Shown here piece by piece: positions 8,983 through 48,903 of a stretch of 64,000 bases of DNA; the first letter of the stretch is position 1, and every line of letters starts with the position of its first letter. The position numbers and the translations under genes are program-made. The stretch is from Bacteroidota bacterium (GTDB lineage: Bacteria > Bacteroidota > Bacteroidia > AKYH767-A > 2013-40CM-41-45). Location of the stretch: contig JANLRG010000511.1 of assembly GCA_031361545.1 (NCBI GenBank), positions 91-64,090 on the forward strand, given 5' to 3'. A model generated the notes under the pieces. The model was not told where the DNA came from. It searched no databases and was given only the letters and a program-made list of their open reading frames with translations.

Positions 8983-9007
8983 GAAAAAATATTAATGTAA
9001 AATTAAA

Positions 9008-9041
9008 AAGCGAATCTGAAATTTCAGAGTCGCTTTTTTTA
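9008..9041. terminator. bidirectional rho-independent terminator between convergent M49 and MIP genes
   Basis: Hairpin GCGAATCTGAA / TTCAGAGTCGC with one mismatch, flanked by an A-run upstream and a T7 run downstream. Confidence 0.7.
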
Positions 9042-18806: not shown

Positions 18807-19772
18807 ATGAAAAAAGAAATTCTATTAGAAGAAAACAAAGATCGCTTCGTGCTATTCCCTATTAAATATCCAAAAATCTGGGAGATGTATAAAAGATCTG
18901 AACAAAGTTTTTGGACCGCTGAAGAAGTAGATCTTCATGCAGATTTGAAAGATTGGGAAAATTTAAAAGACGGAGAGCGTCATTTCATTAAACACGTTCT
19001 TGCTTTTTTTGCAGCAAGCGATGGAATAGTGAATGAAAATTTGGCGATTAATTTTATGAATGAAGTGCAATTGCCTGAAGCACGTTGTTTTTATGGTTTT
19101 CAAATTATGATGGAGAACATCCATTCTGAAATGTACTCTCTATTAATCGACACTTATATAAAAGACTCTGCCGAGAAAACTCATTTGCTACATGCTATAG
19201 ATACTGTTCCTTGTGTAACGAAGAAAGCTGAATGGGCATTAAGATGGATTTCTAATGGATCTTTCGCAGAACGCTTAATTGCTTTTGCTGCTGTAGAAGG
19301 AATTTTCTTCTCTGGATCTTTCTGCTCAATATTTTGGTTGAAGAAACGTGGATTGATGCCCGGTCTAAGTACGTCGAACGAATTTATTAGTCGTGATGAA
19401 GGAATGCATTGTGATTTCGCTTGCTTGCTTTATGACATGCTTGAAAATAAACTTCCACAATCTCAGGTTACAGAAATTATTCGTGATGCTGTTCGCATCG
19501 AACATGAATTCGTGACGGATGCATTACCGGTTTCTTTAATTGGTATGAATTCTAAATTAATGTGTCAGTATATCGAATTTGTTGCTGATCGCCTTTTAGT
19601 TTCGCTTGGCTGTGAGAAAACTTTTATGAGTACGAATCCTTTCGACTTTATGGAAATGATTTCTCTTCAAGGAAAAACAAACTTCTTTGAAAAGAGAGTG
19701 AGCGAATATAAAAAAGCTTCTGTTGGACAACTTCAAGAGGAAAACCTCTTTAAACTAGACGAAGATTTTTGA
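18807..19772 (+). CDS. nrdB: class Ia ribonucleotide reductase beta subunit (R2)
   Basis: Di-iron ligand motifs and a radical Tyr region (ENIHSEMYS; EGIFFSGSF; SRDEGMH). Confidence 0.9.
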
Positions 19773-19866: not shown

Positions 19867-20649
19867 ATGACCAATTCAACGTCGTACAAATTAGTTGAGA
19901 AAAGATCATTCCGCAAAATTTGCAGAATTTTCTTTCAATTCTTTTTAGGAGATACGCTGAACTCTTTTATTCTTCTACTTAAGAAAAATAGAAAGTATCA
20001 CTTCGATAATTCAAAATATATCGGGATAAATCTAGGGAGCAGTACAGATAATCCACCACGGTGGATTGGCTTGAGTGGCGGCGTCACAATATTTTTTGTG
20101 AATCTTCCAAAGTTTCTTCTTTACCTAGCTTTCCCTTTTTCTTTGAGAAGTAAAAAACAATCCTTCAGTGATTTTTATAAGGAAGTTAAAACAGGAAAAG
20201 TGATTCATCACAATTTGTTTTATGGAATTCCTTTTAAGAATGATACTGTACAAAATGTTTTCTCCAGTCATTTTGTTGAACATCTAACTTATGATTCTGC
20301 TCGCTTCTTATTGGCGGAATCGTTTCGTGTTCTTCAACCAGGCGGATTCATTCGGATTTTAGTTCCATCACTTCAAAGTGAAGTAGAGAAAATGAAACAG
20401 GCTATTGAAGAGTTTGAAAAAGGAAACAACCAAGCAATCCAGACGTTCGTTACTGAACCTTATCAGGATTTGATGGACTCCTTCAGTCATCACCATTTTA
20501 TGTATGATGGACCAGCTCTTCAAAAAATTATTTCTGAAGTGGGATTCTCAGAAGTAGAAATTAAACAACTTGGAGAAGGAAAATTTCCTGATTTAAATTT
20601 GCTTGAAAAAAGAAAAAGCGTAATTGTTGAAGCGAAAAAACCTTTATAA
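19867..20649 (+). CDS. class I SAM-dependent methyltransferase-like protein (Methyltransf_11-like, degenerate motif I) inserted between nrdB and nrdA
   Basis: Motif II/III-like IPFKNDTVQNVFSSHFVEHL and post-motif LLAESFRVLQPGGFIRI. Motif I is non-canonical (GINLGSS). Confidence 0.45.
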   Translation: MTNSTSYKLVEKRSFRKICRIFFQFFLGDTLNSFILLLKKNRKYHFDNSKYIGINLGSSTDNPPRWIGLSGGVTIFFVNLPKFLLYLAFPFSLRSKKQSFSDFYKEVKTGKVIHHNLFYGIPFKNDTVQNVFSSHFVEHLTYDSARFLLAESFRVLQPGGFIRILVPSLQSEVEKMKQAIEEFEKGNNQAIQTFVTEPYQDLMDSFSHHHFMYDGPALQKIISEVGFSEVEIKQLGEGKFPDLNLLEKRKSVIVEAKKPL

Positions 20650-20707: not shown

Positions 20708-23086
20708 ATGTACGTAATCAAAAGAGACGGAAGAAAAGAAACAGTGAAATTTGACAAAGTCACTGCACGCATTGAAAAACTAGCCTACAGCCTTTCTGAA
20801 CATGTGGATACTTTCGCAGTTGCTCAAAAAGTAATTGAAGGTATTTATGATGGAGTAACTTCATCGCAATTAGATAGTCTCGCTGCTGAAATTGCAGCTT
20901 CAATGACTACACGTCACCCTGATTACGCTATTCTTGCCGCTCGTATTGCTGTCAGTAATCTTCACAAAAACACAAAGAAATCTTTCAGCGAAACGATGAA
21001 AGATTTATATGAATACATCGATCCAAAAACTTTAAAGAAAGCTCCGCTATTAGCAGAAGATGTGTTCAATTTAATTTGGAGTAATCGCGATTTACTCGAT
21101 TCAACAATTATTTATGATAGAGATTTCGGCTATGATTATTTTGGATTCAAGACACTAGAGAAATCATATTTACTTAAGTTAAGTGGCAAGATTGCAGAGC
21201 GCCCGCAACACATGCTAATGCGTGTCTCTATCGGTATTCACAAAAATGATATTGAGTCTGCCATAGAAACTTATAATTTTATGAGCGAACGCTGGTTCAC
21301 TCATGCAACTCCCACACTATTTAATGCTGGCACACCAAAGCCTCAGTTGAGTTCTTGTTTTCTTTTGCAAATGGAAGAAGATAGTATTGATGGAATTTAC
21401 AATACACTTAAAAACTGTGCGAAAATTTCTCAGTCTGCTGGTGGTATAGGTTTGAGTATTCATAATATTCGTGCTACTGGGTCTTACATTCGTGGTACCA
21501 ATGGAACATCGAATGGAATTGTTCCGATGCTTCGTGTGTTTAACGATACAGCTCGATATGTTGATCAAGGTGGAGGAAAACGAAAAGGATCATTTGCAAT
21601 TTATCTCGAACCATGGCATGCCGATATTTTCGATTTTCTTGAATTGAAAAAAAATCACGGTAAAGAAGAGATTCGTGCTCGTGATTTATTCTATGCTATG
21701 TGGATTTCTGATTTGTTTATGGAAAGAGTGGAAGCTGATGGCGAATGGAGTTTGTTCTGTCCGAGTGAGGCTCCCGGATTAGCGGATTGCTACGGTGATA
21801 AGTTTCGTGAACTTTATGCTCGTTACGAAGAAGAAGGTCGCGCTCGTAAGACTGTAAAAGCTCAAGAACTTTGGTTTGCAATTTTGGAATCGCAAATTGA
21901 AACAGGAACTCCTTACATGCTTTATAAAGATGCATGCAATGAAAAGAGCAATCAGAAAAATTTGGGAACGATTAAAAGTTCAAATTTGTGTACTGAAATT
22001 GTGGAATACACCGCTAAGGATGAAATTGCTGTTTGTAATTTAGCATCGATAGCTCTTCCGCGATTTGTTATCAACGGAAAATTTGATCACCAAAAATTAT
22101 TTGATATCACTTATGTGATTACAAAAAATTTGAATAAAGTAATTGACATCAATTATTATCCGGTAATAGAAGCAAGAAATAGTAATATGCGTCATCGCCC
22201 AATTGGAATTGGTGTTCAAGGACTCGCAGATGCTTTTATCTTGATGCGCATGCCATTTGATAGCGAAGGAGCTCGTGAATTAAATAAAGAAATTCATGAA
22301 ACGATTTATTATGCTTCAATGACAGCATCGAAAGATCTTGCTAAAAAAGATGGAGCTTACGAAACGTATGAAGGATCGCCGGTTTCTCAAGGAATATTTC
22401 AGTACGATATGTGGAATGTTACTCCAACCGATCGTTGGGAATGGGATGTATTAAAAGAAGAAGTGAAAAAATATGGAGTAAGAAATTCTTTATTGCTCGC
22501 TCCAATGCCAACAGCAAGTACGTCACAGATTTTAGGAAACAACGAATGTTTTGAGCCATACACTTCCAATATTTATTCGAGACGTGTATTAAGTGGAGAA
22601 TTTCCAATTGTGAACAAACATTTGCTAAAAGATTTGGTGAAATTAAATTTGTGGAATGAAAACATGAAAAATAAAATCATCGGCGCAAATGGTTCGGTTC
22701 AAGATATTGATGAGATTCCTGCCGATTTAAAAGAAATCTATAAAACCGTTTGGGAAATTAAGCAGCGAACGATCATTGACATGGCAGCTGATCGTGGTGC
22801 TTATATTTGTCAGAGTCAGTCGTTGAATTTATTTATTCAAGATGCCAATTTTGCCAAACTTACATCAATGCATTTTTATGCTTGGAAGAAAGGATTGAAA
22901 ACTGGAATGTATTATCTAAGAACAAAATCTGCTGCTGATGCAATCAAATTCACCGTAGAGCAATCGTACCTAAAACAACCCGTAATAAATTCATTAGAGT
23001 TATTGGAAGTTGATAAAGAAGAAGCTTTTGCTCAAATGGCTTGCTCGCTTGATAATCCGGAGTCTTGCGAAGCATGTGGTAGCTAA
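20708..23086 (+). CDS. nrdA: class Ia ribonucleotide reductase alpha subunit (R1)
   Basis: ATP-cone ([20 protein letters not shown]). Catalytic Cys region (NLCTEIV). C-terminal CxxC thiol pair (CEACGS). Confidence 0.9.
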
Positions 23087-25811: not shown

Positions 25812-25936
25812 TTATTAATAGTTTAAAAAGATGTGAATCGAATTAATTCGGGATGAAAGATGAATTATCATAATTGTTTTTTCTATGTTTCCCGATTATT
25901 TCTAATTTGGTATTTCACAAGTTAAATTATGCAATT

Positions 25937-27547
25937 ATGAAAAGAATATTTACTATCTCATTATTGATTCTGTTAATCAATACTTACCAATCATTTTCTC
26001 AAACTTATCATCCTTTTAATGTAACGGCGTACGATTCTGTGCAATCAACTGGATATTATTTTTTCTGCCCCTATCGTCTATCCGCTTATCCGACATTTCC
26101 TTCCGGTAGTCAACATCAAATGATTCTTGATCACAAAGGCAATGTTGTGTACTATAGAAGTGTTGCAGGATCTTTTGCCGGTGATTTTAAATTGCAACCC
26201 AATGGACAAATTTCATATTGTGGTAGAAATAATTTTTTCCTGATGGATAGCTCTTTTACTGTAGTCGATTCTGTTACTACAAAAAATGGTGTGATGTTGG
26301 ACATTCATGATTTGCAAATTCTTCCCAATGGTCACTATTTAATTTTAGGAAATGAAGACGTACAACGAGATATGAGTAGTTATCCGATTTTCCTCCATAA
26401 CAATACTGTCGGAAGTGTAAATGCTGTAATCACTGCTTATGTAATTCAGGAATTGGATGCTGCGAAAAATGTTGTTTTCGAATGGCACTCCATCGATCAT
26501 TATGGTTTGGATGATGCCGATGATTTTTGGTTAACGGATACCGCACGAGTGGATTGGACTCATGTGAATTCAATAGAGATGGATTTTGACGGAAACTTTT
26601 TAGTGTCTAGCAGACACTTTGATGAGATTACTAAAATTAGTAGAGCCGATAGTTCTATCATTTGGCGAATGGGAGGGAAGAGAAATCAATTTACATTTAT
26701 AGGCGATAGCCTTCAATTTCTTTCGCAACATGATAGTCGCCGATTGGCCAACGGAAATTTATCGCTGTTCGACAACGGAAGACCATTGAATCCTATGCAT
26801 TATGCAGCAGCTAAAGAGTATACTCTTGATGAAATAAATTTAACTGCAACCTTGGTATGGAGTCATAATGAAGGAACAAATCAGTGGAGTCGCTCACAAG
26901 GTAATGCACAGAGGTTGCAAAATTCCAATACATTGATTAGCTACGGAAATTTACTTCCGACGCCAATCGTATTCAATGTAGTGGATTCATTGCAAAATAA
27001 AATTTTCGAAGTTCAATTTCCAGATTCTCTTATTTCATACAGAAGTTTTAATTTTAATTCTTTACCATGGAGCTTGAACAGACCACAAATTACTTGTTCA
27101 ATTGTCGGCGGACAACATTTTCTAGTTGCTGAAAGCGGCCACTCAAAATATATTTGGTCCACAGGTGATAGCACACAAAGCATTCCTGTTTCAACCACGG
27201 GCGATTTTCACGTTTTTGTTCCAATTGGTGATAGCGGATTTATTTCATCAGAAATTCTATCTGTAGCCGACACCTCTGACCCTTGCGGATTAATTAACTA
27301 CGTAAATATTGTAAGTGATAATAGTTTCCTGCTCTATCCAAATCCTGCTGAGAATACAATCAATATCACTAATAAAAATAAAGTTGAAGCAGTCTATGAA
27401 ATTTGGGATGTCGTTGGACGAAAAGTTAAAACTGGAAAATTGTCTGAGAATGAAAAATCAGAAATTGATGTAAGCAAACTTTCAAGTGGTGTTTACTTCT
27501 TCCGATTAGAAAATAAATTAAGCAAATTCATTATTCGAAGACAATAA
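25937..27547 (+). CDS. secreted beta-propeller protein, arylsulfotransferase (ASST)-like, with T9SS C-terminal sorting domain
   Basis: Signal peptide (MKRIFTISLLILL). ASST-like blades (HDLQILPNGHYLILGNE; WTHVNSIEMDFDGNFLVSSR; RLANGNLSLFDNG). C-terminal Por_Secre_tail (GVYFFRLEN). The start is moved to an internal ATG with a signal peptide. Confidence 0.5.
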   Translation: MKRIFTISLLILLINTYQSFSQTYHPFNVTAYDSVQSTGYYFFCPYRLSAYPTFPSGSQHQMILDHKGNVVYYRSVAGSFAGDFKLQPNGQISYCGRNNFFLMDSSFTVVDSVTTKNGVMLDIHDLQILPNGHYLILGNEDVQRDMSSYPIFLHNNTVGSVNAVITAYVIQELDAAKNVVFEWHSIDHYGLDDADDFWLTDTARVDWTHVNSIEMDFDGNFLVSSRHFDEITKISRADSSIIWRMGGKRNQFTFIGDSLQFLSQHDSRRLANGNLSLFDNGRPLNPMHYAAAKEYTLDEINLTATLVWSHNEGTNQWSRSQGNAQRLQNSNTLISYGNLLPTPIVFNVVDSLQNKIFEVQFPDSLISYRSFNFNSLPWSLNRPQITCSIVGGQHFLVAESGHSKYIWSTGDSTQSIPVSTTGDFHVFVPIGDSGFISSEILSVADTSDPCGLINYVNIVSDNSFLLYPNPAENTINITNKNKVEAVYEIWDVVGRKVKTGKLSENEKSEIDVSKLSSGVYFFRLENKLSKFIIRRQ

Positions 27548-27568
27548 TAATATTTCTTAAAATTAAAA

Positions 27569-27606
27569 AAGTGCGCATTCTATCTTTGGATTGCGCACTT
27601 TTTTTT
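27569..27606 (+). terminator. rho-independent terminator
   Basis: AAGTGCGCA ... TGCGCACTT stem followed by T8. Confidence 0.75.
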
Positions 27607-27647
27607 AAAAGTATATTTCGATAATTATTTTGTTACTCGTAATCCTT

Positions 27648-27880
27648 TTTCAATTCTCAATTCTCAACTGTCCTAAATTATCAATCTTCAATAATTAATC
27701 CTCAATTCTCAATCTTCAATCCTCAATCTTCAATTATCCTCAATCCTCAATCCTCAATCTTCAATTATCCTCAATCCTCAATTCTCAATCTTCAATCTTC
27801 AGTTATTCTCAATCCTCAATTCTCAATCTTCAATCTTCAGTTATTCTCAATCCTCAATTTTCAATTTTCAATCTTCTCAT
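27648..27880. repeat. family A intergenic repeat: about 30 tandem degenerate heptads (TCCTCAA / TCTCAAT / TCTTCAA) with a higher-order unit of about 38 bp
   Basis: Direct reading. For example, TTCAATCTTCAGTTATTCTCAATCCTCAATTCTCAATC occurs twice in tandem. The array overlaps the last few codons of the HNH gene. Confidence 0.85.
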
Positions 27881-28428
27881 ATCTCTACATGTCCCCAATT
27901 CTGGCCAGATTTAATTCTGTACAATTGCATTTCACTAATACCAAATTTGTAAGCAACATCTTTCAAAAGAATTCTTCTATTTTCTTTCGAAATTATTTTT
28001 TTGATTTGACGAACTCGAGCAATGGAAAGCTTCTGACCTTTTACTTTTATTTTTTTACGATAAGCAAGTACTTCCGGATTCTTGTTTTGATGCTCTTCTA
28101 CTTCTGCTTTGGTAGCCCAACTTAAATTACTGACTTTGTTATTTAGTTTGTCGAAGTTGTGATGAATAATGAAGTCTTGATTCCGCTTCGTTTTTTTTAT
28201 AAACATTTGTCCTACCAATTTGTGAACGTAATACTGATAATCATGGTCAGCAACTTTTACTTTTAAAACTAAATAACCATTGACATTTGTTCCCCTCAAA
28301 TTTTTTCTCTCTTCTAAGGATTCTTTAAAACTACAAATGCGACCTCTGTTCGAAATACCATATCGGGTTCGCTGATTCTTAGGATCTATTCGAATTTCTT
28401 TCCACTCTTCTGAAGTTATCTTGACCAT
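27877..28428 (-). CDS. free-standing HNH homing-endonuclease-like protein (NUMOD4 + HNH_3 + C-terminal HTH)
   Basis: NUMOD4-like EEWKEI ... YGISNRGRICS. HNH_3 core IHHNFDKLNNKVSNLSWAT. C-terminal HTH-like AYKFGISEMQLYRIKSG. Phage-type module with no phage neighbours. Confidence 0.7.
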   Translation of the reverse strand: MVKITSEEWKEIRIDPKNQRTRYGISNRGRICSFKESLEERKNLRGTNVNGYLVLKVKVADHDYQYYVHKLVGQMFIKKTKRNQDFIIHHNFDKLNNKVSNLSWATKAEVEEHQNKNPEVLAYRKKIKVKGQKLSIARVRQIKKIISKENRRILLKDVAYKFGISEMQLYRIKSGQNWGHVEI

Positions 28429-28664: not shown

Positions 28665-29351
28665 ATGATTGAATCTCTCAAAGTATTTTACACCTCTGTT
28701 GGTCGTAAACTTGTCATGGCCTTGACCGGATTGTTCCTCTGTACTTTCCTATTGGAACACCTCTATGGAAACCTTCTTCTCTATAAATTAGATGGCGGAA
28801 AAGCTTTCAATGAATACTCCGAATTTATGGCGGGCAATATGCTTATTAGAACAATCGAATTCGGACTGTTTGGTGGTTTTATAATCCATATTCTCGATGC
28901 TCTTTTTATTACGATGTCAAATAAAAAAGCTAGACCTGTTTCTTACGCTGTCAATCATCAATCAAAAAATAGTACTTGGTTCAGTAGGAACATGGGACTT
29001 ACAGGTTCTATCATTCTCTTCTTCCTCATTGTCCATTTACGTACGTTCTTTTTTCCGCATCGCTTTGGGGCACCAGATACTTCCATGAGCTATGATGTTG
29101 CCAATGCTTTTCAAACCAATTGGTATGCAGCACTTTATTTGATTGCAATGGTTATTCTTGGCGCCCATTTAAATCATGGTTTCCAATCTGCCTTCCAAAC
29201 TGTTGGCGCCAACAACCAAAAATTCAGAAAGTCTTTGAAATCGTTCGGTACAGGTTTCGCCCTACTCATTATGATTGGATTCGCTTCCTTTCCAATTATC
29301 TTCTACTTCAACTTGTTTGATGCCGCAACCAATATGGGTATCGCTAAATAA
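28665..29351 (+). CDS. sdhC: succinate dehydrogenase/fumarate reductase cytochrome b subunit (b558 family)
   Basis: Five TM helices with conserved His. It is immediately upstream of the flavoprotein and Fe-S subunits. Confidence 0.8.
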   Translation: MIESLKVFYTSVGRKLVMALTGLFLCTFLLEHLYGNLLLYKLDGGKAFNEYSEFMAGNMLIRTIEFGLFGGFIIHILDALFITMSNKKARPVSYAVNHQSKNSTWFSRNMGLTGSIILFFLIVHLRTFFFPHRFGAPDTSMSYDVANAFQTNWYAALYLIAMVILGAHLNHGFQSAFQTVGANNQKFRKSLKSFGTGFALLIMIGFASFPIIFYFNLFDAATNMGIAK

Positions 29352-29395
29352 TATAAATATTTGTCGCTCCGCGGCTTCACTATAAAGTCTGTTAC

Positions 29396-31318
29396 ATGAT
29401 GAGTAAACTTAACTCCAGAATTCCAGAAGGGCCCCTCGAAAAAAAGTGGGATCAATACAAATCTAAAGTTCGGTTGGTGAATCCGGCAAACAAACGACGC
29501 ATCGAAATAATCGTCGTTGGATCGGGATTAGCCGGCGGTGCTGCCGCTGCAAGTTTAGCGGAACTTGGATATTCTGTAAAATGTTTTTGTTTTCAAGACA
29601 GTCCTCGTCGTGCGCATAGCATAGCAGCTCAAGGTGGAATCAATGCTGCAAAAAACTATTCAAATGATGGTGATAGCGTTTACCGATTATTTTATGATAC
29701 CGTAAAAGGCGGAGACTATAGAGCACGTGAAGCAAATGTTTATCGATTGGCCGAAATTTCTACTTCCATCATTGACCAATGTGTTGCACAAGGTGTTCCA
29801 TTCGCTCGTGAATATGGCGGACTATTAGATAACCGTTCATTCGGCGGTGTTCAAGTCTCTCGAACTTTTTATGCTCGAGGACAAACTGGTCAGCAACTAT
29901 TACTTGGAGCCTACAGTGCCATGTCTCGTCAGATTGCTAAAGGAAATTTGAAAATGTATAACCGTCACGAGATGGTTGAAGTAGTAAAGATTGATGGAAA
30001 AGCTCGCGGTATCATCGCAAGAAATTTAGTGACAGGTGAAATTGAAAGACACTTTGGTCATGCAGTTGTTCTTGCATCTGGAGGCTATGGAAATGTATTT
30101 TACCTTTCAACAAACGCAATGGGTAGCAATGTAACAGCTGCATGGAAAGCTCATAAACAAGGGGCGTATTTTGGAAATCCTTGCTTTACACAAATTCACC
30201 CAACTTGTATTCCAGTGAGTGGAGAATATCAGTCAAAGCTAACTTTGATGAGTGAAAGTTTGCGTAACGATGGACGTGTTTGGGTTCCAAAAGCTAAAGG
30301 CGATAAACGTAAGCCGGAAGAAATTAAAGAAGAGGAAAGAGATTATTATTTGGAACGTCGATATCCTGCATTCGGAAATTTAGTTCCACGCGATGTAGCT
30401 TCAAGAGCTGCTAAACAAGTGTGCGACGATAGTCAAGGTGTCGGTCCGAGTGGACTAGCGGTCTATTTAGATTTCCGTGATGCAATCAATCGTCTTGGAC
30501 GCGATGTAATCAGTGAACGTTATGGGAATCTTTTTGAGATGTATGAAAAAATTACTGGTGACGATCCTTATAAAACTCCTATGAGAATTTATCCTGCTGT
30601 ACATTATACGATGGGCGGACTGTGGGTAGATTATAACTTGATGACAACTGTTCCTGGTTTATATGCATTGGGAGAATGTAATTTCTCTGATCATGGCGCC
30701 AATCGCTTAGGAGCTTCTGCTTTGATGCAAGGATTAGCTGATGGCTATTTTGTAATTCCTTATACAATTGGCGATTATTTAGCTGATGAAATTAGAGTGC
30801 CTGCTATTCCAACTTCTCACCCTGCTTTTGAAGAAGCAGAAAAAAATGTTGTTGATCGAATTAATAAATTGAAAAATATCAATGGCAAACAAACTGTTGA
30901 AGACCTTCATAAAAAGTTAGGCAAGATCATGTGGGAATATTGTGGAATGGCGAGAAATGCTGAAGGCCTCACAAAAGCTTTGCAAATGATTAGAGATTTG
31001 AAAAAAGAATTCTGGTCTGATGTAAAAGTTCCTGGCGATATCAATGAGTTTAATCCTGAACTTGATAAAGCCGGTCGTGTAGCTGACTTTATTGAATTGG
31101 GTGAATTAATGGTGACGGATGCTTTGATGCGTGAAGAATCATGCGGAGGACATTTTCGTGAAGAGTCGCAAACAGAAGATGGTGAAGCAAAACGTGACGA
31201 TGAAAAATTTGCTTTCGTCGCTGCTTGGGAATTTGCCGGTGAAAACGCTCAACCGATTTTGAATAAAGAAGAACTTGTCTTTGATGAAGTTCATCCAACT
31301 CAGAGATCTTATAAATAG
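29396..31318 (+). CDS. sdhA: succinate dehydrogenase/fumarate reductase flavoprotein subunit
   Basis: FAD-binding [10 protein letters not shown]. Covalent-FAD His region ([13 protein letters not shown]). Fumarate-reductase family C-terminus. Confidence 0.9.
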
Positions 31319-31320
31319 GC

Positions 31321-31440
31321 AAGAGAAAAAAGTAAAAAATAAAAAGTAAAAAGTAATAAGGTTAAAAGTCAGAGGTCAGATAAAAAAGTAAAAAGTAATT
31401 AAGTTAACAAGTAAAAAGAATTTTTTTTTGAACCTTGAAC
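31321..31440. repeat. family B intergenic repeat (AAAAGTAA units plus AAGGTTAAAAGTCAGAGGTCAG core) inside the sdhA-sdhB intergenic space, ending in a T9 run
   Basis: The core is the reverse complement of CTGACCTCTGACTTTTAACCTT seen at 32481-32545 and 48690-48850. Confidence 0.75.
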
Positions 31441-31490
31441 ATAAATGACCAAGCAATTAAACTTTGAAGCCAAAACAACAATACATAACA

Positions 31491-32243
31491 ATGGAATCAA
31501 TAAACCTTAAATTAAAAATCTGGAGACAAAAAAACGCCAAATCAACAGGCCGTTTTGAGATTTATGATATGCCAGGTGTAAATACTCACATGTCTTTTTT
31601 GGAAATGATGGATGTCCTCAATGATCGTTTAATTCGTGAAGGCAAAGATCCTGTTGCATTTGATCATGATTGTCGTGAAGGTATTTGTGGGATGTGCAGT
31701 ATGTTTATAAACGGTCGTGCTCACGGCCCAATGAGAGCTACAACAACTTGTCAACTTCACATGCGTCATTTTAGTGATGGAGAAACAATTACCATCGAGC
31801 CATTCAGGGCCAACTCTTTTCCTGTCATTAAAGATTTAGCAGTTGACCGTTCATCATTCGATAAAATTATTCAAGCCGGAGGATATGTTTCTGTCAATAC
31901 TGGAAACGCTCCTGATGCGAATAGTTTACCAATTGAAAAACATAAAGCAGATGAGGCTTTCGATGCCGCTGCTTGTATTGGCTGTGGAGCTTGTGTTGCA
32001 AGTTGTAAAAATGCATCCGCAATGCTTTTCTTATCTGCAAAAGTTTCACAACTGACGCTTCTTCCTCAGGGCGACCCTGAAAGAAGAGAGAGAGTAATGA
32101 ATATGGTCATGACTCATGATGAAGCTGGATTTGGCAACTGTACGAATACAGGAGCTTGTGAAGCAGAATGCCCTAAAGGAATTTCAATTTCTCATATCGC
32201 CCGACTTAATCGCGAATATGTAAGAGCAGCGGTTACAAAATAA
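31491..32243 (+). CDS. sdhB: succinate dehydrogenase/fumarate reductase iron-sulfur subunit
   Basis: 2Fe-2S Cys cluster (CREGICGMC), 4Fe-4S ([11 protein letters not shown]) and 3Fe-4S ([12 protein letters not shown]). The ORF-track start 31464 is TTG; the first ATG 31491 is used. Confidence 0.85.
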
Positions 32244-32260
32244 GGGCAGAGATTGGAAGT

Positions 32261-32545
32261 GATAGGTCAGAGGGAAAAATTGAAAATTGATAATTGTGAA
32301 TTGAAAATTGATAGTAAAAAAATTGATAATTGATAATTGAAGATGGAGAATTGTGAATTGAAAATTGACTATGAAAAATTGAGAATTAATTAATTAAAGA
32401 TTGAGGTTTTGAAATCGAAGTCGTCAAATAATTTTCAGATTTAATATCTTCAATTTTCAATTCTCAATTTCATTCTCATCCCTTTGACCTCTGACTTTTA
32501 GCTCTCTTACTTCTTACTTTGAATTTTGACCTCCACTTTCTTCCC
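32261..32545. repeat. composite inverted repeat element: B(rev)-A(rev)-spacer-A(fwd)-B(fwd) between convergent sdhB and the Cys-rich gene
   Basis: GGTCAGAGGG, then reverse-orientation heptads (TTGAAAATTGA ...) 32277-32400, then forward heptads CTTCAATTTTCAATTCTCAATTTCATTCTC 32447-32480, then TTGACCTCTGACTTTTAGCTCTCTTACTTCTTACTTT. The arms can fold into a long imperfect hairpin. Confidence 0.8.
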
Positions 32546-33112
32546 TTCCAAATGCTCTGCAGCAATCTCTAATTGCTTATACCACTCTTCACCGTATTTT
32601 CTGGTCAACGACTCTTTCAAAAATTTATAAACAGGAACTTTTAAACTATCTCCCAACTTACAAGCGGCCTTGCAAATTGACCAATGATCATAATTAATTG
32701 CTTCTAATCCGGTCTTCTGTTTTGTAATGCGTATAGGATAGAGGTGACAACTAATTGGCTTCTTCCATTCTACTTTTCCCTCATAATATGCTTTCTCAAT
32801 AGCACATTTAGCAATACCTTCTTTATCAAAAAAAGTGTAAGCACATTCTTTTCCTTTGATCAATGGTGTAACCCATTCTTTTTTCTCATACAACAAATAA
32901 CGACCTTGCTTTTCTACTGCTTCAATTCCGGCGGCAGTCATGTACGGCGTAACCTTGTCATAAATTTTATCAATAATTTCTAATTCTTCTTTCTCCAATG
33001 GTGCACCGTAATCACCTTTCACACAACAAGCACCCTTACAGGCGTTCAAGTCGCACACAAATTTTTTATCAAAAATCTCTTCGGAGATTAGGGTATGGTC
33101 GATTGCTAACAT
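32507..33112 (-). CDS. Cys-rich hypothetical protein, DUF3109-like
   Basis: Conserved N-terminal CDLNACKGACCVKGDYGAPL cysteine cluster plus additional Cys pairs. The last ~12 codons lie inside the repeat element. Confidence 0.45.
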   Translation of the reverse strand: MLAIDHTLISEEIFDKKFVCDLNACKGACCVKGDYGAPLEKEELEIIDKIYDKVTPYMTAAGIEAVEKQGRYLLYEKKEWVTPLIKGKECAYTFFDKEGIAKCAIEKAYYEGKVEWKKPISCHLYPIRITKQKTGLEAINYDHWSICKAACKLGDSLKVPVYKFLKESLTRKYGEEWYKQLEIAAEHLEGKKVEVKIQSKK

Positions 33113-38123: not shown

Positions 38124-39674
38124 ATGGCAAGCTCTACTACTGAAGATCTATTCAAAAATATCATTTCCCACTCAAAGGAGTATGGGTTCATTTTTCAATC
38201 CAGTGAAATTTATGATGGCTTAAGTGCCGTCTATGATTACGGACAGAATGGTGTGGAATTGAAAAAAAATATTCGTGAATATTGGTATAAAGCTATGGTT
38301 CAACTCAACGACAATATCGTTGGAATTGATGCCGCAATATTTATGCATCCAACAACTTGGAAAGCTTCTGGTCACGTTGATGCATTCAGCGATCCTTTAA
38401 TCGACAATAAAGATTCTAAAAAACGTTATCGTGCCGATGTTTTAATTGAAGAACATGTAGCAAAGTTGGAAACGAAAATTAATAAGGAAGTTGAAAAAGC
38501 TAGACAACGATTTGGCGAAACTTTTAATTTGGAAACGTATCTCGCTACCAATCCACGTGTCCTAGAATATCAAGGTAAGATCGACGTAATTAATAATCGT
38601 TTTAAAATTGCTTTGGAGAGTAATGATCTCGCCGATGTAAAACAAATTATTCTGGATCTGGAAATAGTTTGCCCGGTTAGTGGCACTCGCAACTGGACAG
38701 ATGTGCGACAGTTTAATTTAATGTTTAGTACACAACTCGGTTCTGTTGCTGAAGATGCGAGTACAATTTATCTAAGACCTGAAACTGCTCAAGGAATTTT
38801 TGTTAACTTTTTAAATGTTCAGAAAACTGGACGAATGAAAATTCCATTTGGCATTGCTCAAACTGGAAAAGCTTTTCGAAATGAAATTGTCGCGCGACAA
38901 TTTATTTTTAGAATGAGAGAATTTGAACAAATGGAAATGCAGTTTTTTATTCGGCCAGGTACAGAGATGGAATGGTATTCTTATTGGAAAGAGAAACGGA
39001 TGGCATGGCATAAGTCATTAGGTTTTCCTGGTAACAAACATCGTTTTCATGATCATTTAAAGTTAGCTCATTATGCGAACGCTGCTTGTGATATTGAATT
39101 TGAATTTCCTTTTGGCTTTAAAGAACTGGAAGGAATCCATTCTCGCACTGACTTCGATCTTCGTAATCACGAACAGTTTTCTGGAAAGAAGCAACAATAT
39201 TTCGATTCTGAATTGAATGAAAATTATATTCCTTATGTACTTGAAACATCGGTAGGATTAGATAGAATGTTTCTGGCCGTGATGTCTCAGGCTTTTGATG
39301 AAGAGAAACTAGAAGATGGAACAGAACGCGTTGTATTGCGTATTCCTGCTTTCTTAGCTCCAATCAAATGTGCGGTATTACCATTGATGAAAAAAGATGG
39401 ACTCCCTGAAAAAGCAAAGGAGATAATGAAAAAACTTCAGCTCGATTATTTAATTTCTTCCGAAGATAAAGATTCAATCGGAAAACGATATCGCCGTCAA
39501 GATGCTATCGGAACTCCGTATTGTATCACGGTCGATCATCAAACTCTGGAAGATAATACAGTCACCATTCGTTATAGAGACACTATGAAACAAGAGCGAA
39601 TTGCTATTGATGCAATCGATGGAATACTTCGCGATACTGTCGATATGAGAAGTGCGTTAGCAAAACTTGTATGA
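38124..39674 (+). CDS. glyQS: glycine--tRNA ligase (dimeric class II type)
   Basis: Class II motifs and GlyRS-specific N-terminus (FQSSEIYDGLSAVYDYG). Anticodon-binding C-terminus. The ORF-track start 38115 is TTG; the ATG at 38124 is used. Confidence 0.9.
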   Translation: MASSTTEDLFKNIISHSKEYGFIFQSSEIYDGLSAVYDYGQNGVELKKNIREYWYKAMVQLNDNIVGIDAAIFMHPTTWKASGHVDAFSDPLIDNKDSKKRYRADVLIEEHVAKLETKINKEVEKARQRFGETFNLETYLATNPRVLEYQGKIDVINNRFKIALESNDLADVKQIILDLEIVCPVSGTRNWTDVRQFNLMFSTQLGSVAEDASTIYLRPETAQGIFVNFLNVQKTGRMKIPFGIAQTGKAFRNEIVARQFIFRMREFEQMEMQFFIRPGTEMEWYSYWKEKRMAWHKSLGFPGNKHRFHDHLKLAHYANAACDIEFEFPFGFKELEGIHSRTDFDLRNHEQFSGKKQQYFDSELNENYIPYVLETSVGLDRMFLAVMSQAFDEEKLEDGTERVVLRIPAFLAPIKCAVLPLMKKDGLPEKAKEIMKKLQLDYLISSEDKDSIGKRYRRQDAIGTPYCITVDHQTLEDNTVTIRYRDTMKQERIAIDAIDGILRDTVDMRSALAKLV

Positions 39675-40755
39675 TTTAATTTTATTCATTTCAACAATCA
39701 TTTTGAAGCCGCAGCTACAACAGCCCAATAATTTCAATATCATTCGGCTTGCAGCAGCGGCTTTTGTAATCTTTAGCCACTCATTTGGATTTTATGGGAG
39801 ACGAGATCCTGTTTATATTTTTTCGAATGGGAAAATTCCCGGCGGACAATTTGCCGTCTATGTTTTTTTTCTACTCAGTGGTTATCTGATTACAAGTAGT
39901 TGGCTAAAAAAAGAAGAAATATTCCCATACCTCAACAAAAGAGTCCGTCGAATTTTTCCTGCATTGATTGTTACTGTTCTAATTTCTATTTTTGTTGTCG
40001 GGCCAGCTTTTTCCAATTTACCTTTCTTAAATTATTTTTCTTCCTCTGAAACGTATTCCTATTTATGGAATATTTCTCTATGGAAAATGAAACTAACATT
40101 ACCCGGAGTATTCGCTTATGATGGAGTGGAGCATACGGTCAATCCTCCGATCTGGACTTTGTTCTTTGAATTCTTGATGTACATTATTATTATTTTATTT
40201 GGTCTCCTTAAAATGTTTGACCGACAAAAAAAATCCATTTACATTCTGTGGACATTTGTTTTGGCTTCATTAGTATTGGTTTTGATAAAAATTTCTCCTG
40301 AGCTTTTTATATTTAAAATAGGAGTAGCCAACTTTGTTCGCTTTTTTCTCTTCTTCTTTGCTGGAGCAATCTTCTTCATTTATTGCAAAGAAAGAAAGAT
40401 TCCAATGATATTTCCAATTGTGTTTTTCGCAATGATGTGCGTATTAAGAAATACAGATTTATTTTTTGTTCCTGCTTTCATTTTTATCATTGCAATCGTT
40501 TTTCGAATTGCATTTCACGAGCAAAGATATGGACAAAGAATTGTGAGCTACGGCGATTTCTCCTATGGAACGTATCTTTACGGATATATTATTCAGAATA
40601 TCGTTTTTCAAATAATTGGCGAAAAATTAAATCCGTGGAGTCTTTTTATTATTTCACTTTTGCTGACGGTCCCGCTTGCAATTTTATCATGGAACATCGT
40701 CGAAAAAAAATTCTTAGATAAATCAAGTACAGCGATTAAAATAATTAATAAGTAA
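39667..40755 (+). CDS. acyltransferase family 3 integral membrane protein
   Basis: IIRLAAAAFVIFSHSF N-terminal signature and about 10 TM helices. It overlaps the glyQS stop. The start codon is uncertain: the ORF-track start is TTG and there is no nearby ATG. Confidence 0.6.
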   Translation: MYDLILFISTIILKPQLQQPNNFNIIRLAAAAFVIFSHSFGFYGRRDPVYIFSNGKIPGGQFAVYVFFLLSGYLITSSWLKKEEIFPYLNKRVRRIFPALIVTVLISIFVVGPAFSNLPFLNYFSSSETYSYLWNISLWKMKLTLPGVFAYDGVEHTVNPPIWTLFFEFLMYIIIILFGLLKMFDRQKKSIYILWTFVLASLVLVLIKISPELFIFKIGVANFVRFFLFFFAGAIFFIYCKERKIPMIFPIVFFAMMCVLRNTDLFFVPAFIFIIAIVFRIAFHEQRYGQRIVSYGDFSYGTYLYGYIIQNIVFQIIGEKLNPWSLFIISLLLTVPLAILSWNIVEKKFLDKSSTAIKIINK

Positions 40756-40850
40756 AAATTAACAAGTAATAAGAGAAGAAGAAAATTGAGAATTGAGAAT
40801 TGGAAATTGAGAATTGAGAACGAAAAATTGAGAATGGAAAACAGCTAAAA
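40751..40850. repeat. composite B(rev)+A(rev) repeat copy (AAGTAAAAATTAACAAGTAATAAG ... GAGAATTGAGAATTGGAAATTGAGAATTGAGAAC)
   Basis: Same heptads in reverse orientation, and an AAGTAA-type segment matching 31390-31428. It abuts the acyltransferase stop. Confidence 0.75.
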
Positions 40851-40991
40851 AACAACGGTTGCATGTCCGTCGGAGTAGTTTGAAATTTATTTATTTGATA
40901 GAAAGGAATTAGAAGAAACAAATTCGTAGCTATAAAAAATTTTGCAATTGAGTTTTTAATTTTTCCTAAAAAAATTGTCCATTAACCATCT

Positions 40992-43311: not shown

Positions 43312-43938
43312 TTACTTTTTAGCAGGAGCTGGTGTTGCAGCTTTAGCAGCTGGTGTTGCAGCAGCTTTAGCATCAGTTGTTGCAGCAGAAGCAGCAGCAC
43401 GAGTTGTTTTAACACCTGTGATTACGTTGTTCGGGCTATTTAAAATTTCTACTCCTGGAATAACAATGTCTTTCACACGAACATCGTCGCCAATCTCCAA
43501 TTTATCGATACTGATATCAATAGAATCTGGAAGATCTTTTGGAAGTGCAGAAACTTTTAACTGACGAGATTTCGTTGTTAATTGTCCACCGGCACGAACA
43601 CCAACAGCGTTACCTGAAATTTTTACAGGTATGTCCATAGTGATTTTTTTTGTTTCATCGATTTCTAAAAAATCGATGTGCTGAATTTTATCAGTCACTG
43701 GATGGAACTGAATGTCTTTCATCATGGCTTTGTAAGTAGTGCCTTCTACGTTCAACTCAACTGTGAATACATTTGGCGTGTACACCAGTCCTTTTAGAGA
43801 GAGAGCCGGCGTACTGAAATGGATTTGTTCTTTTCCACCATAAAGTACACATGGAACTTTTCCCTCTGCTCGCAGTTGGATGTTTTCCTGCTTCGTTTGA
43901 GCTGCTCTTTTTGTTCCGTTAATTGAAATTGATTTCAT
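43312..43938 (-). CDS. rplY: 50S ribosomal protein L25 / general stress protein Ctc
   Basis: L25/Ctc N-terminal beta-barrel (RAEGKVPCVLYGG). Ala/Lys-rich tail. Confidence 0.85.
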   Translation of the reverse strand: MKSISINGTKRAAQTKQENIQLRAEGKVPCVLYGGKEQIHFSTPALSLKGLVYTPNVFTVELNVEGTTYKAMMKDIQFHPVTDKIQHIDFLEIDETKKITMDIPVKISGNAVGVRAGGQLTTKSRQLKVSALPKDLPDSIDISIDKLEIGDDVRVKDIVIPGVEILNSPNNVITGVKTTRAAASAATTDAKAAATPAAKAATPAPAKK

Positions 43939-45293: not shown

Positions 45294-48200
45294 ATGAATG
45301 GAAGCCATTTGATCACACAATTTTTCCTAAAAACATATTCTCTTTTTTTATCATTTGATAGGAAAAGAGCGGTCGTCTGCTCCATTTTCTTTTGTTCCCT
45401 CTTTCCCGCTAAAGCTCAACTCATATTAAACAATACGCCAACTCCATCTCAATTGGTCAATCTTCTCACTGGACCAGGAGTCACTATTTCAAATGTAGTT
45501 TATACTGGCTCCACTTTAGCACGAGGAAGTTTTACGGCGGCAGGGACAAATTTAGGAATCAACAGTGGAGTGGTGCTTTCTACTGGAGATATTTCTGATG
45601 GTATTGGTCCCAATTTATACGATAGTTCTGGTGTAAATTTCGGTTTACCCGGAGATGCTATTCTGGACGTAATTGCAGGAGCTACTACTCATGATGCAGC
45701 TATTCTTGAATTCGATTTCATTCCACAAAACGATACAATTTCATTTCGTTATGTTTTCGCCAGTGAAGAATATCCGGAATATGTTTGTTCTAATTATAAT
45801 GACGCTTTTGTTTTTAATATTTCTGGTCCGGGTATCGCTGGAACTCAAAATATGGCCATCCTCCCCGGCAGTGCAATTCCTGTTGCCATCAATACTGTAA
45901 ATCCTGGTGTGAGTGGCGCCTTCGGTGGAGGAGGAACTTGCGATACTACACACTCTTCTTACTATGTAAATAATGTTGGAGGAACAACTTTAGAATTTGA
46001 TGGGTTCACAACTGTTCTGACTGCTACTTCTGTCGTTATACCTTGCCAATTATATCACTTACGCATTGCCATTGCAGATGCTGGCGATGGTGTGTGGGAT
46101 AGTGCAGTGTTCTTTGAACAAGGAAGTCTGTCTTCTACACCAGTCATCTATGCAGGCGTTGATCAAACTTTTTGTAAAAATGCTATTGTTAATCTTGGTT
46201 CTCCTGCTGTTTCTGGTTGGACTTACTCTTGGTCACCGACTGTCGGTCTTTCGAATCCTTCAATTTCAAATCCGGTTTTGAATTATACAAATAATGGTCT
46301 TCTTCCAGTTGTTCAAACTTATACTGCCACAGCTAATTCTGGAAGTTGTACGCTGACTGATACGATTTCAATCACCATTAATCCACAACCAACTTCAACT
46401 TTTATTGCACCAACGCCCCTTTGCGCTGGTCAGCTTGGCACACTCACATACACTGGAAATGGAAGTGCAACTTCTTTGTTTGGATGGAATTTTTCTGGTG
46501 CATCGGTTACTGGTAATAATCCGGGCCCGTATCAAATTTCATTTTCATCTCCCGGCGATTATAATGTTTCATTGTATGTTTCAGAAGCAGGCTGCTCTTC
46601 CCCGGTTATTCAAAATACAATTCATGTTTCTCAAAATCCTGTTGCTGCAATTGTGTCTTTAATAAATGCTTGTGCTGGTGATACCATTACATTATCGTCC
46701 GCAGGTAGTCTTGCTGGTGCAACGGCAATTTATAATTGGAATTTCGGAACAGCTACAGTTATCAGTGGTAATAACCAAGGACCATTTCAAGTAGTTGTTT
46801 CTGCTGCCGCTGCAACAAATTTTTCATTAACGATTACTGATAGTTCTTGTGTTTCAAATTCTGTAACCGTTCCTTTCACCGTTAAACCTTTGCCTCTTGC
46901 AACTGTCGTTGCTCCCATCAATGTTTGTTCTGGAACAACGGACACTGTATTTTTTGTTGGAAGTAATTTGGCAGCTTCATCTTATTCGTGGAATTTTCCA
47001 AATGCTATATTGATCAGTGGAGCAGGAGCGGGGCCATTTATTTTAAACTGGAATTCTACAGGTGATCAACCAATTTCTGTTCAAGTGAACGATAATGGTT
47101 GTATTGGAAAAGACTCAACTTTAGTGCATGTAGATCTCCAGCCTGTCGCTGCTTTTTCTAATTTTCCTGTTGCTTGTATGTATGATTATGTTGAATTTAT
47201 TTTTAATGGTATTGCTGACGACAGCACAAAGTATAATTGGATGTTTGTGAATGGATCAGTCTCTAACTCTAACAATGCAGGACCACACGATTTATATTGG
47301 GATAGGGCAGATACTTTTTCTGTTTCATTAATTACGTCGAATGGATCTTGTAGAGACACAGCAATCAATACAATTATTATTAATGAAAAACCGGTAGCAG
47401 ATTATTCTACAACATCAGTTTGTGTGAATGATACAACAGGAATAATTAATAATTCATTTTTTACTGATAGCATTGGAAATATTTTTGAATGGAATTTTGG
47501 AGATTCGACTACGAGCAATGATTTTTCTCCATCACATTTATATTCAACTTATGGAAATTTTAATGCACAACTAATAATTACTACACCAAAAGGATGTAAA
47601 GATACATTAGCAAAAACTGTTGAAGTTTATCCATTGCCAAAAGCGGTTTTTGCTACAGATACAGTTTGCTTCGGATTGTCGAATCATTTTGGAAATTATT
47701 GTTCGATTGTAAATGGAACGATTACAACACAGAGTTGGAATTGGGGAGATACTACAACTGCTATTGGAAATCAAAGTACGCATCACTATTCACAAGCAGG
47801 AGATTATTATGTTCAATTGTTTGTGACTAGTGATAAAGGTTGTAAAGATAGTATTGTGAATGTTGCTAAAGTGATTGAAACTCCTACAGCAATCTTTAAT
47901 CCCGATTTTACTTCTGGTTGTGTACCATTGATGGTTCAATTATTTGATCATACTAATTCAGCAGACGATTCATTAGTCAATTGGCAATGGAGTTTTGGTG
48001 ATGGCTTTTTAAGCATTGATTCATTTCCCGCTCATACTTTTACAGCTCCTGGAATTTATTCATTGTACTTACAAGTTACTACCTCTCGCGGATGTACTAG
48101 CGATACAACTCTGGATCGGTATGTCACAGTTTATCCTGTTCCGCAAGCAAACTTTTCTTTCTCTCCCGAATCTCCAGATGTTATTTTGGCACATGTGAAT

Positions 48201-48656: not shown

Positions 48657-48671
48657 TTATAATTATGAACT

Positions 48672-48900
48672 CATAAGGAATAATTAATAAGGAATAATTA
48701 TTAAGTAATAATTTTTTGACCTCTGACCTCCGACTGTAAACTTTTAACTTTAACCTTATTCCTTAAAACCCCTCTGACTTTTTGAACTTTAATCTTATTC
48801 CTTATTAATTATTATTTATTACTTAAAATTCCTCTGACCCCTGACTTTTAACCTTTAACTTTATTCCTTATTATTTATTAATTAATAATTATTCCTTTAC
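48672..48900. repeat. family B composite repeat with internal inverted arms (ATAAGGAATAATTAATAAGG ... TGACCTCTGACCTCCGACTG ... CTGACTTTTAACCTTTAACTTTATTCCTTATT)
   Basis: The TGACCTCTGAC and TTAACCTTATTCCTTA motifs are shared with 31321-31440 and 32481-32545. It sits between convergent genes. Confidence 0.75.
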
Positions 48901-48903
48901 TTT

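Follow-up and report, generated by a model that had tools for sequence, protein, structure and literature searches.

Does the DNA between the convergent genes sdhB and DUF3109 on contig JANLRG010000511.1 belong to a family of mobile repeats, or did it arise in place? The sequence analyzed here (the window) is a 64-kb stretch of this contig with a GC content of 34.6%. It stems from a member of the Bacteroidota and encodes the sorting domains Por_Secre_tail and CHU_C of the type IX secretion system (T9SS), which are typical of that phylum. A first-pass annotation had flagged positions 32261-32545 as one of six composite loci resembling repetitive extragenic palindromic (REP) sequences and bacterial interspersed mosaic elements (BIMEs). 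Our analysis identifies the flagged locus as a back-to-back pair of heptanucleotide simple-sequence arrays of the class described as short tandemly repeated repetitive (STRR) DNA or long simple-sequence repeats (LSSR). With a probability of roughly 0.6, we conclude that the two opposed arrays of 7-nucleotide (nt) tandem units which fill this spacer arose by slippage and persist only in the orientation that is compatible with the adjoining open reading frames (ORFs). Such arrays are of a kind already known, and the flagged locus is ordinary for its class, with Bacteroidota units of its own. What the present analysis adds is that the orientation grammar of these arrays extends to many heptads which are unable to form quadruplexes, and that it extends across phyla.

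The flagged locus and the other array loci of the window

The flagged locus consists of the following parts (coordinates of the window; module B is explained below):

32257-32409, + strand: left (5') arm, GGTCAGAGGG (module B remnant) followed by ~16-18 AATTGAR/AATTGAT units; C-poor on the + strand
32410-32445, no strand: apex between the arms; the minimum-free-energy structure shows a small, weak hairpin here and then a U-rich stretch
32446-32506, - strand: right (3') arm, TCAATTT/TCAATTC units followed by CCCTTTGACCTCTGACTTTTAG (module B); G-rich in the DUF3109 sense; pairs with 32257-32308
32507-32545, - strand: repeat-like 3' end of the DUF3109 ORF (TCTTACT twice, TTGACCTCC), comprising its final 13 codons

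The left arm begins 14 nt past the sdhB stop codon (32241-32243). Runs of AATTGAA, AATTGAT and AATTGAG units at 32276-32405 are followed by complementary TTCAATT/TCTCAAT units at 32430-32478, and GGTCAGAGGG and TGACCTCTGAC flank these runs on the left and the right side, respectively. The arms are unequal (~150 nt vs ~60 nt), and stretches of 52 nt (32257-32308 and 32446-32497) are 73% complementary, which bears out the mirror order B-A...A-B that had been proposed for 32261-32545. The predicted RNA fold of 32244-32506 reached -72.8 kcal/mol on the + strand (shuffled sequences: -49.8 +/- 4.2; z = -5.4) and -51.9 kcal/mol on the - strand (shuffled sequences: -36.4; z = -3.9), in agreement with the earlier description of a hairpin-capable locus between convergent genes. 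The right edge at 32545 had been regarded as intergenic, but positions 32507-32545 lie within the DUF3109 ORF, the stop codon of which is at 32507-32509. The last 19 residues of this ORF, ending in EGKKVEVKIQSKK and the stop, are located outside the Pfam DUF3109 model, which covers residues 1-182 of 201, and it seems that the array took the place of the C-terminus and stop codon that DUF3109 originally had.

Lag-7 autocorrelation across the whole window revealed a period-7 signal at six places only (1-143, 27632-27892, 31292-31407, 32243-32409, 40734-40857, and 48664-48915) and none in any of the remaining intergenic DNA. The claim of six dispersed non-coding loci at gene 3' ends is upheld. 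Arrays with a period of 7 or 14 nt, or longer compound ones, were detected by Tandem Repeats Finder at 1-138, 27681-27876, 31326-31418, 32276-32478, 40781-40842, and 48673-48897. The arrays are ~120 to 260 nt long, comprise up to ~26 units and lack conserved termini. A 24-nt tandem repeat at 43318-43388 (three copies, 80% matches) inside the 3' end of the L25/TL5 gene is coding and unrelated to the heptad arrays.

Two shared modules had been postulated for the six loci. Module A, TCAATYYTCAATYYTCAAT (three successive YYTCAAT units), matched the window 14 times compared to 0.00 matches expected from 100 shuffles. Module B, TGACCTCTGAC, was found five times with up to one mismatch (0.33 expected from shuffles), and four copies of the longer module B block TTAAAAGTCAGAGGTCA with up to three mismatches were located within array loci (0.22 expected). 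Sharing of blocks far above the level of shuffled sequences is thus confirmed, but the distinction of two kinds of module is not. Module B consists of the heptads AAAAAGT, AATAAGG, TTAAAAG, and TCAGAGG and is itself heptadic; therefore modules A and B are two flavours of one architecture. The blocks shared among the loci are 7-nt units and one 17-nt three-heptad block (module B), which recurs at three loci. At 40751-40780, where another module B copy had been listed, only AAGTAA-type units occur and not TGACCTCTGAC. Viral contig L364 contains, at 2882-2966, an inverted pair of GTCAGAG/GTCAGAT/GTCAGAA units (AAGTCAGATGTCAGAGGTCAGAAGTA and its complement) that is close to the module B core GTCAGAGGTCAGA.

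The low GC content of the window and the degeneracy of the units would be in line with AT-rich low-complexity spacer DNA devoid of any higher-order organization. This explanation is refuted, and its remaining probability is negligible: none of the shuffles contained the three-unit match seen 14 times in the window, the 7-nt period is absent from the rest of the intergenic DNA, and the same architecture occurs in genomes with up to 69% GC. The earlier view that the loci are more than low-complexity sequence was therefore correct. With 14 three-unit matches vs 0 in 100 shuffles, the arrays are statistically over-long for their composition and have the length that characterizes long simple-sequence repeats.

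The arrays at the other five loci are:

1-143, - strand: heptad array, TCTCAAT/TTTCAAT/CCTCAAT on the + strand (ATTGAGA in the hflX sense); cut by the window edge
27632-27892, - strand: longest array, ~26 YYTCAAT units with a 38-nt super-period; G-rich in the HNH/NUMOD4 sense
31319-31440, + strand: array filling the sdhA-sdhB spacer, AAAAAGT units, AATAAGG-TTAAAAG-TCAGAGG-TCAGA (module B) and further AAAAAGT units
40738-40857, + strand: AATTAACAAGTAAA twice, then AATTGAG units; G-rich in the acyltransferase sense
48664-48716, + strand: second inverted locus, left arm, (ATAAGGAATAATTA)n; begins 16 nt past the stop codon of the PKD/CHU_C adhesin
48717-48903, - strand: right arm of the second inverted locus, module B copies interleaved with CCTTATT/TTATTAA units

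By context, four of the six loci are convergent spacers; of the other two, one is situated inside the sdh operon and the second is truncated by the edge of the window. All seven scorable arrays follow a stop codon at a distance of -18 to +37 nt and are C-poor and G-rich in the sense of the respective gene, which agrees with the previous statement that every copy adjoins a stop codon. The hflX stop codon (139-141) lies within the last unit of its array, the longest array adjoins the stop codon of the HNH/NUMOD4 gene (27877-27879), the array in the sdhA-sdhB spacer begins immediately 3' of the sdhA stop codon (31316-31318), and the array at 40738-40857 overlaps the acyltransferase stop codon (40753-40755). 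As for DUF3109, arrays appear to have taken the place of the native C-terminus and stop codon in both hflX and the acyltransferase. In the second inverted locus, module B matches were found at 48717 and 48724 (overlapping each other) and at 48835; its right arm adjoins the stop codon (48904-48906) of the beta-carbonic-anhydrase-like gene and is G-rich when read in the sense of this gene.

The genes next to the arrays were assigned by Pfam:

139-1335, - strand: hflX (GTP-bdg_N, GTP-bdg_M, MMR_HSR1)
25874-27547, + strand: T9SS arylsulfotransferase-like gene
27877-28428, - strand: HNH/NUMOD4 gene
28665-32243, + strand: sdhC, sdhA, sdhB
32507-33112, - strand: DUF3109
39667-40755, + strand: acyltransferase
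45294-48656, + strand: PKD/CHU_C adhesin
48904-49449, - strand: beta-carbonic-anhydrase-like gene

Elsewhere in the window, a 260-aa ORF (19867-20649, + strand) with weak matches to methyltransferase domains is located between the genes of the small (18807-19772) and large (20708-23086) subunits of ribonucleotide reductase.

Turnover of the arrays and their relation to known repeats

Close-strain material comprised a 4.9-kb metagenome contig (L001) and two short Logan contigs. L001 encodes an identical SdhB, and its flanks are 97-98% identical to the window. It carries arrays at sites matching those of the window, of which the HNH array differs by 7- and 48-nt indels and the array in the sdhA-sdhB spacer is 49 nt longer than in the window. 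Presence/absence polymorphism had been named as a sign of mobility; L001 differs instead by gain and loss of units at fixed sites. Both ends of L001 are inside arrays, and a second short-read contig (L487) stops 47 nt beyond the stop codon of the HNH gene. Where a genome is rich in such arrays, they will break up its short-read assembly. The free-standing HNH/NUMOD4 gene, which is of the homing-endonuclease type, is located directly upstream of sdhCAB, and this position is kept in both L001 and L487.

More distant relatives were represented by 80 metagenomic loci with 66-84% identical SdhB and a total length of 512 kb, which contained 10 arrays compared to 11 array segments in the 64 kb of the window. 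In about half of these relatives, the sdhA-sdhB spacer has a length of only 1-12 nt, whereas in the others it spans 50-150 nt and is expanded by unrelated heptad-like repeats. In several of these diverged, Flavobacteriia-like relatives, namely L441 (3932-4001), L470 (669-753), L445 (3930-4001), L409 (3887-4001), L462 (3841-4001), and L479 (3925-4001), the repeats at this junction form a hairpin in which a G/T-rich arm precedes its A/C-rich complement. The unrelated heptads at one and the same junction point to an origin of the arrays in place and not by insertion of a fixed element. Downstream of sdhB, the relatives possess ordinary intrinsic terminators, whereas the window has none at that position, and DUF3109 is adjacent to sdhB in 0 of the 80 relatives. 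In-place recurrent origin, differing sequences, and change by whole units represent the behavior of simple-sequence repeats and not that of a transposed element.

These comparisons bear directly on the possibility that the arrays are non-autonomous mobile elements, similar to REP/BIME or to MITEs (miniature inverted-repeat transposable elements), which would be moved by a REP-associated tyrosine transposase (RAYT) or another transposase encoded elsewhere in the genome. The recurrence of the multi-heptad module B at three loci, the recurrence of heptad types within a genome, and the breaking of short-read assemblies at arrays, as at multi-copy elements, would be consistent with mobility. However, the arrays have no consensus unit, terminal inverted repeats, target-site duplications or fixed length, the strain differences are changes of unit number at unchanged sites, and the sdhA-sdhB junction of the relatives holds arrays of unrelated sequence. 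Moreover, a Pfam scan of 46 ORFs of the window revealed neither a RAYT (Y1 transposase) nor any other transposase or reverse transcriptase. Hence, we consider mobile elements a very improbable explanation. MITEs in particular were rejected as candidates because terminal inverted repeats, a target-site duplication and a defined length are missing and the differences between strains are internal unit indels.

The comparison with REP/BIME made by the first-pass annotation is sensible as a functional analogy. Like the enterobacterial elements, the arrays are extragenic, located at 3' ends or between the genes of operons, present in multiple copies and hairpin-capable, and protection of mRNA 3' ends is plausible for both. 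In structure and membership the comparison fails. REP sequences share a conserved unit, an imperfect palindrome of 20-40 nt, and are mobilized by RAYT, and BIMEs contain defined linkers, whereas the window arrays have neither a conserved palindromic unit nor defined linkers or ends, and no RAYT was found among the ORFs scanned in the window. Palindromy exists only where two arrays face each other, and no palindromic unit of 20-40 nt is common to the copies.

The class to which the arrays belong was first recognized in cyanobacteria. STRR heptads of these organisms are CCCCAGT, TTGGTCA, and CAACAGT, none of which is identical to the window units YYTCAAT, TGACCTC, CCTTATT, and ACTTTTT. STRR can reportedly build helices and are said to lengthen a helix of the RNase P RNA, a finding ascribed to Vioque. 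As in STRR, the window arrays consist of tandem 7-nt units, fall into several families per genome, are dispersed in non-coding DNA and would be transcribed with their neighbors; unlike the STRR of heterocystous cyanobacteria, they occur in a Bacteroidota host and are strongly composite. The cyanobacterial STRR are the original heptanucleotide example (Mazel 1990 and Vioque 1997, as cited in PMC4692102 and PMC2858038), and STRR sequences have been found also inside the gene for RNase P RNA (Vioque 1997, as cited in PMC2858038).

The closest parallel to the inverted arrangement is found in Xanthomonas. Rehm 2015 (PMC4692102) describes dispersed, intergenic GGGAATC and GGGGA(C/T)T heptameric repeats in Xanthomonas and Nostoc; in Xanthomonas, GGGAATC repeats on opposite strands make up 70-75 pairs "in convergent orientation". 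According to that work, those GGGAATC repeats that come 0-50 bp past a stop codon are found on the coding strand and those immediately upstream of an ORF on the non-coding one, their length varies between strains, and no link to mobile elements is seen; G-quadruplexes are invoked, with four as the preferred number of units. The window loci 32257-32497 and 48673-48897 have the arrangement of these convergent pairs, and unit numbers are likewise strain-variable in the HNH and sdhA-sdhB arrays of the window. In contrast to the Xanthomonas and Nostoc units with GGG tracts, the repeated units of the window contain at most GG, and the sole GGG runs are at module B ends.

Heptamer arrays have also been reported from Bacteroidetes, so that the description of the arrays as an element without a name in Bacteroidota needs to be corrected: they belong to the STRR/LSSR heptanucleotide repeats. 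MacGregor 2015 (PMC4679880) reported arrays of the heptamer TAACTGA in Beggiatoaceae, Cyanobacteria, and five Bacteroidetes, as well as "other heptamer direct repeats" and long arrays in spacers of Gramella forsetii and Aequorivita that are absent from close relatives. The TAACTGA sets mostly consist of 2-6 units just upstream of start codons and were proposed to be sites of translational regulators (PMC4679880). The window arrays are likewise intergenic tandem arrays of heptamers, but all of them follow stop codons and are made of other units. TAACTGA itself occurs in L112, a contig of a Bacteroidetes metagenome-assembled genome (33% GC), which contains ~30 tandem TAACTGA/TAACTAA units at 742-952 with other heptad arrays adjoining.

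Mrazek 2007, as relayed in PMC4679880 and PMC4692102, defined LSSR with units of 5-11 nt as over-long, mainly non-coding, and taxonomically sporadic; heptanucleotides were the commonest long simple-sequence repeats and possibly result from polymerase slippage (via PMC4679880). The window arrays match LSSR in being over-long for their composition and polymorphic in unit number between close strains (7-, 48-, and 49-nt indels). The polarity of inverted pairs and the orientation at stops and starts, which are described below, do not feature in the Mrazek 2007 survey as far as it was checked.

Distribution and orientation of heptad arrays across phyla

The wider sample comprised ~3.4 Mb of retrieved loci from many phyla, picked for containing arrays, and the window. 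Four YYTCAAT units were found in 105 stretches of viral contigs and in at least 120 stretches of a genome collection that represents a taxonomic sample and not a census. Among the matches listed were, within the Bacteroidota, Prevotella and other Bacteroidales, Saprospiraceae, Lewinellaceae, and Chitinophagaceae; within the Acidobacteriota, Thermoanaerobaculia and Blastocatellia; and furthermore Desulfonema magnum, a cyanobacterium, Chloroflexota, Verrucomicrobiota, and candidate-phyla lineages. These genome loci spanned 33 to 69% GC. Each of these loci contained several composite heptad arrays, and many contained inverted pairs with a stem made of tandem heptads. In the viral contigs L043 (8.4 kb), L081 (11 kb), L021 (14 kb), and L045, a composite heptad array occupies most intergenic spacers; L043 has 10 arrays in 8.4 kb, and in L045 the arrays often reach the next start codon.

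TCAAT was considered as a specially favored heptad and rejected, as composition-matched controls gave 59 (TACAT), 33 (ATCTA), and 88 (CTAAT) viral stretches vs 105 for TCAAT. The repertoires were contig-specific: leaving out one seed array per locus, TCAAT-type arrays accounted for 22-37% of the remaining arrays in TCAAT-seeded loci vs 2.6% in control-seeded loci. Genome-specific repertoires and the fixed orientation of arrays relative to genes could be explained if the arrays were multi-site binding platforms for a protein with a ~7-nt footprint, either an RNA-binding protein with cold-shock, S1 or KH domains or a DNA-binding nucleoid protein. Such a protein would regulate translation or the fate of the mRNA, and the heptads of each genome would be matched to its own protein. 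On heptamer repeats, each heptamer is bound by one CspB protein, and for the TAACTGA repeats upstream of starts, S1, Csp or CsrA have been suggested as binding proteins (PMC4679880). However, many heptads coexist per array and per genome, the units degenerate freely, and with 33-88 control stretches vs 105 for TCAAT no sequence is favored globally. A role as binding platforms therefore seems improbable.

Inverted pairs were detected with a purpose-written inverted-repeat finder in all retrieved loci and the window, and a pair was scored as G-first if G exceeded C in its 5' arm. In the TCAAT-seeded loci and the window, 51 pairs were G-first and 2 were C-first (p = 3e-13), and an independent control-seeded set gave 18 vs 2 (p = 4e-4). 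After de-duplication, 74 pairs remained in total (69 G-first, 4 C-first, 1 with G = C; thus 69/73 G-first). The polarity was also seen with heptads other than TCAA (20 vs 2 in the first set), is strand-symmetric, and applies to both pairs of the window (32257-32497 and 48673-48897). Since window units with at most GG cannot form quadruplexes and still follow the orientation rule, quadruplexes are arguably not the basis of this grammar. In the literature covered by our search, which was incomplete, no paper was found that states its generalization across heptads and phyla.

The polarity is closely tied to the adjoining genes. Forty-six pairs were located between co-directional and 11 between convergent genes, whereas none was found in the divergent spacers of the sample (~8.7 expected from background spacer types). 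Counted from the upstream stop codon, the pairs were a median of 3 nt away. Within 25 nt of an ORF, 50 pairs were G-first and none was C-first, and all exceptions were either farther off or called intragenic; the six pairs far from ORFs comprised 4 G-first and 2 C-first pairs. Single arrays showed a corresponding orientation, with 243 G-rich vs 85 C-rich in sense after stop codons compared to 104 vs 132 before start codons (Fisher odds ratio 3.6, p = 7e-13).

Two possible sources of the polarity were rejected. It is neither inherited from bidirectional terminators nor a general feature of hairpins, as the corresponding counts for perfect non-heptadic hairpins of these very loci were 46 vs 43 (terminator-like) and 123 vs 129 (others). 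The stop-codon content of the arms predicted the polarity in 43 vs 7 pairs and was thus a weaker predictor than G>C (51 vs 2), which excludes it as the whole cause.

Transcript ends and competing functional readings

No intrinsic terminator, that is, a short G+C-rich stem-loop followed by a T run, was found by a terminator scan within 32244-32506 or 48657-48903, and Rfam gave 0 matches over the whole window at the gathering score, with only chance-level matches at the flagged locus (E 0.6-0.8). Other parts of the window do contain canonical bidirectional terminators, in which a GC-rich stem is preceded by an A run and followed by a T run: one at ~27566-27608, with the longest array placed between it and the HNH/NUMOD4 stop codon, and one at ~9006-9040. 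This indicates that the organism marks some convergent junctions with canonical terminators and others with heptad arrays. The array at 40738-40857 is followed by a terminator-like hairpin (40853-40872) that serves the opposite gene.

The arrays, and above all the inverted pairs, may be selected RNA elements similar to REP. As hairpins immediately behind stop codons, they would end or dampen transcription, hold off 3'-to-5' exonucleases, and make transcript stability differ along an operon; owing to the G-first order, a C-rich arm resembling a Rho-loading site would never be exposed unpaired. The strong predicted fold of 32244-32506 and the lack of canonical terminators at both inverted loci, where at the position corresponding to the flagged locus the relatives possess terminators, are consistent with this reading. 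So are the location of the pairs a few nucleotides past stop codons and outside divergent spacers, and the unrelated G-first heptad hairpins at the sdhA-sdhB junction in several diverged relatives. In addition, according to Rehm 2015 (PMC4692102), heptamer repeats of Xanthomonas coincide with starts or stops of transcripts more frequently than control repeats do. However, strand-specific selection on the RNA should be visible in wobble-compatible mismatches between the arms, and no excess of G-U compatibility in the sense transcript was observed (23 vs 31). At three of the six window loci the array stands alone and lacks a partner arm, ordinary terminators adjoin two array loci, and the sdhA-sdhB junction carries no element in about half of the relatives. 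The sequence and length of the arrays also change fast between strains, and the fold of the second inverted locus (48657-48903) is marginal and only weakly better than shuffles (z = -2.25). We therefore regard selected RNA elements, the chief rival of the slippage reading, as possible but not likely.

A more far-reaching view would treat heptad arrays as a pan-bacterial punctuation of genes, with a G-rich arm after the stop codon, a C-rich arm before the next start codon, and no arrays between divergent genes. They would be made and maintained by a dedicated process or retained by selection for a co-transcriptional role, and the heptad repertoire of a genome would reflect a matching factor. 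An example of such a role would be to mask a C-rich Rho loading site within a hairpin and to uncouple neighboring cistrons. The near-absolute polarity, which is absent from ordinary hairpins, and the recurrent heptad hairpins at the sdhA-sdhB junction are compatible with gene punctuation, which we nevertheless consider doubtful in all of these parts.

Slippage under constraint by the neighboring ORFs, the reading that we prefer, would proceed in four steps. Whole units are gained and lost, as the unit-wise indels in the strain comparison show, and slipped-strand events would account for this turnover and for the diversification of the arrays. A genome-specific set of heptads including module B, which the loci visibly have in common, may have spread among them by recombination or gene conversion. 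The arrays would then expand until they touch ORFs and persist in the compatible orientation, a rule that is statistically evident from the counts above and would be caused by selection. After a stop codon, the C-poor, stop-codon-rich strand would be in sense, presumably because C is absent from each of the three stop codons and repetition every 7 nt puts a stop in all three frames within 21 nt. Before a start codon, the G-poor strand would tend to be in sense, as a G-free strand contains no ATG, GTG or TTG and no Shine-Dalgarno-like run. In convergent or stop-to-start spacers, the outcome would be an inverted pair with the G-rich arm located 5' on both strands, and transcripts of either strand are predicted to form a long imperfect hairpin. 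Since no canonical terminator is present at 32244-32506 and 48664-48903, this hairpin probably acts as a barrier at transcript ends, which is the weakest step of the proposed mechanism.

Several points weigh against this explanation. Slippage alone fails to account for the presence of the 17-nt three-heptad block at three loci and for the preference of each genome for few heptads. A filter acting purely on stop codons is incomplete, because G>C is the better predictor of polarity. The prediction that polarity relaxes away from ORFs is weakly tested with six pairs. Furthermore, the array densities in the wider sample are not representative, as the loci were selected for arrays, and the genes in the retrieved loci were called by a crude longest-ORF approach, so that starts and some contexts are noisy and the counts are approximate.

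For genome annotation, these results mean that such loci should be labeled as heptanucleotide simple-sequence arrays and not as a new family of mobile elements. The arrays can provide stop codons and C-terminal tails or take their place, as in DUF3109, hflX, and the acyltransferase. The orientation grammar across unrelated heptads and phyla undercuts the G-quadruplex explanation proposed for Xanthomonas and gives testable predictions.

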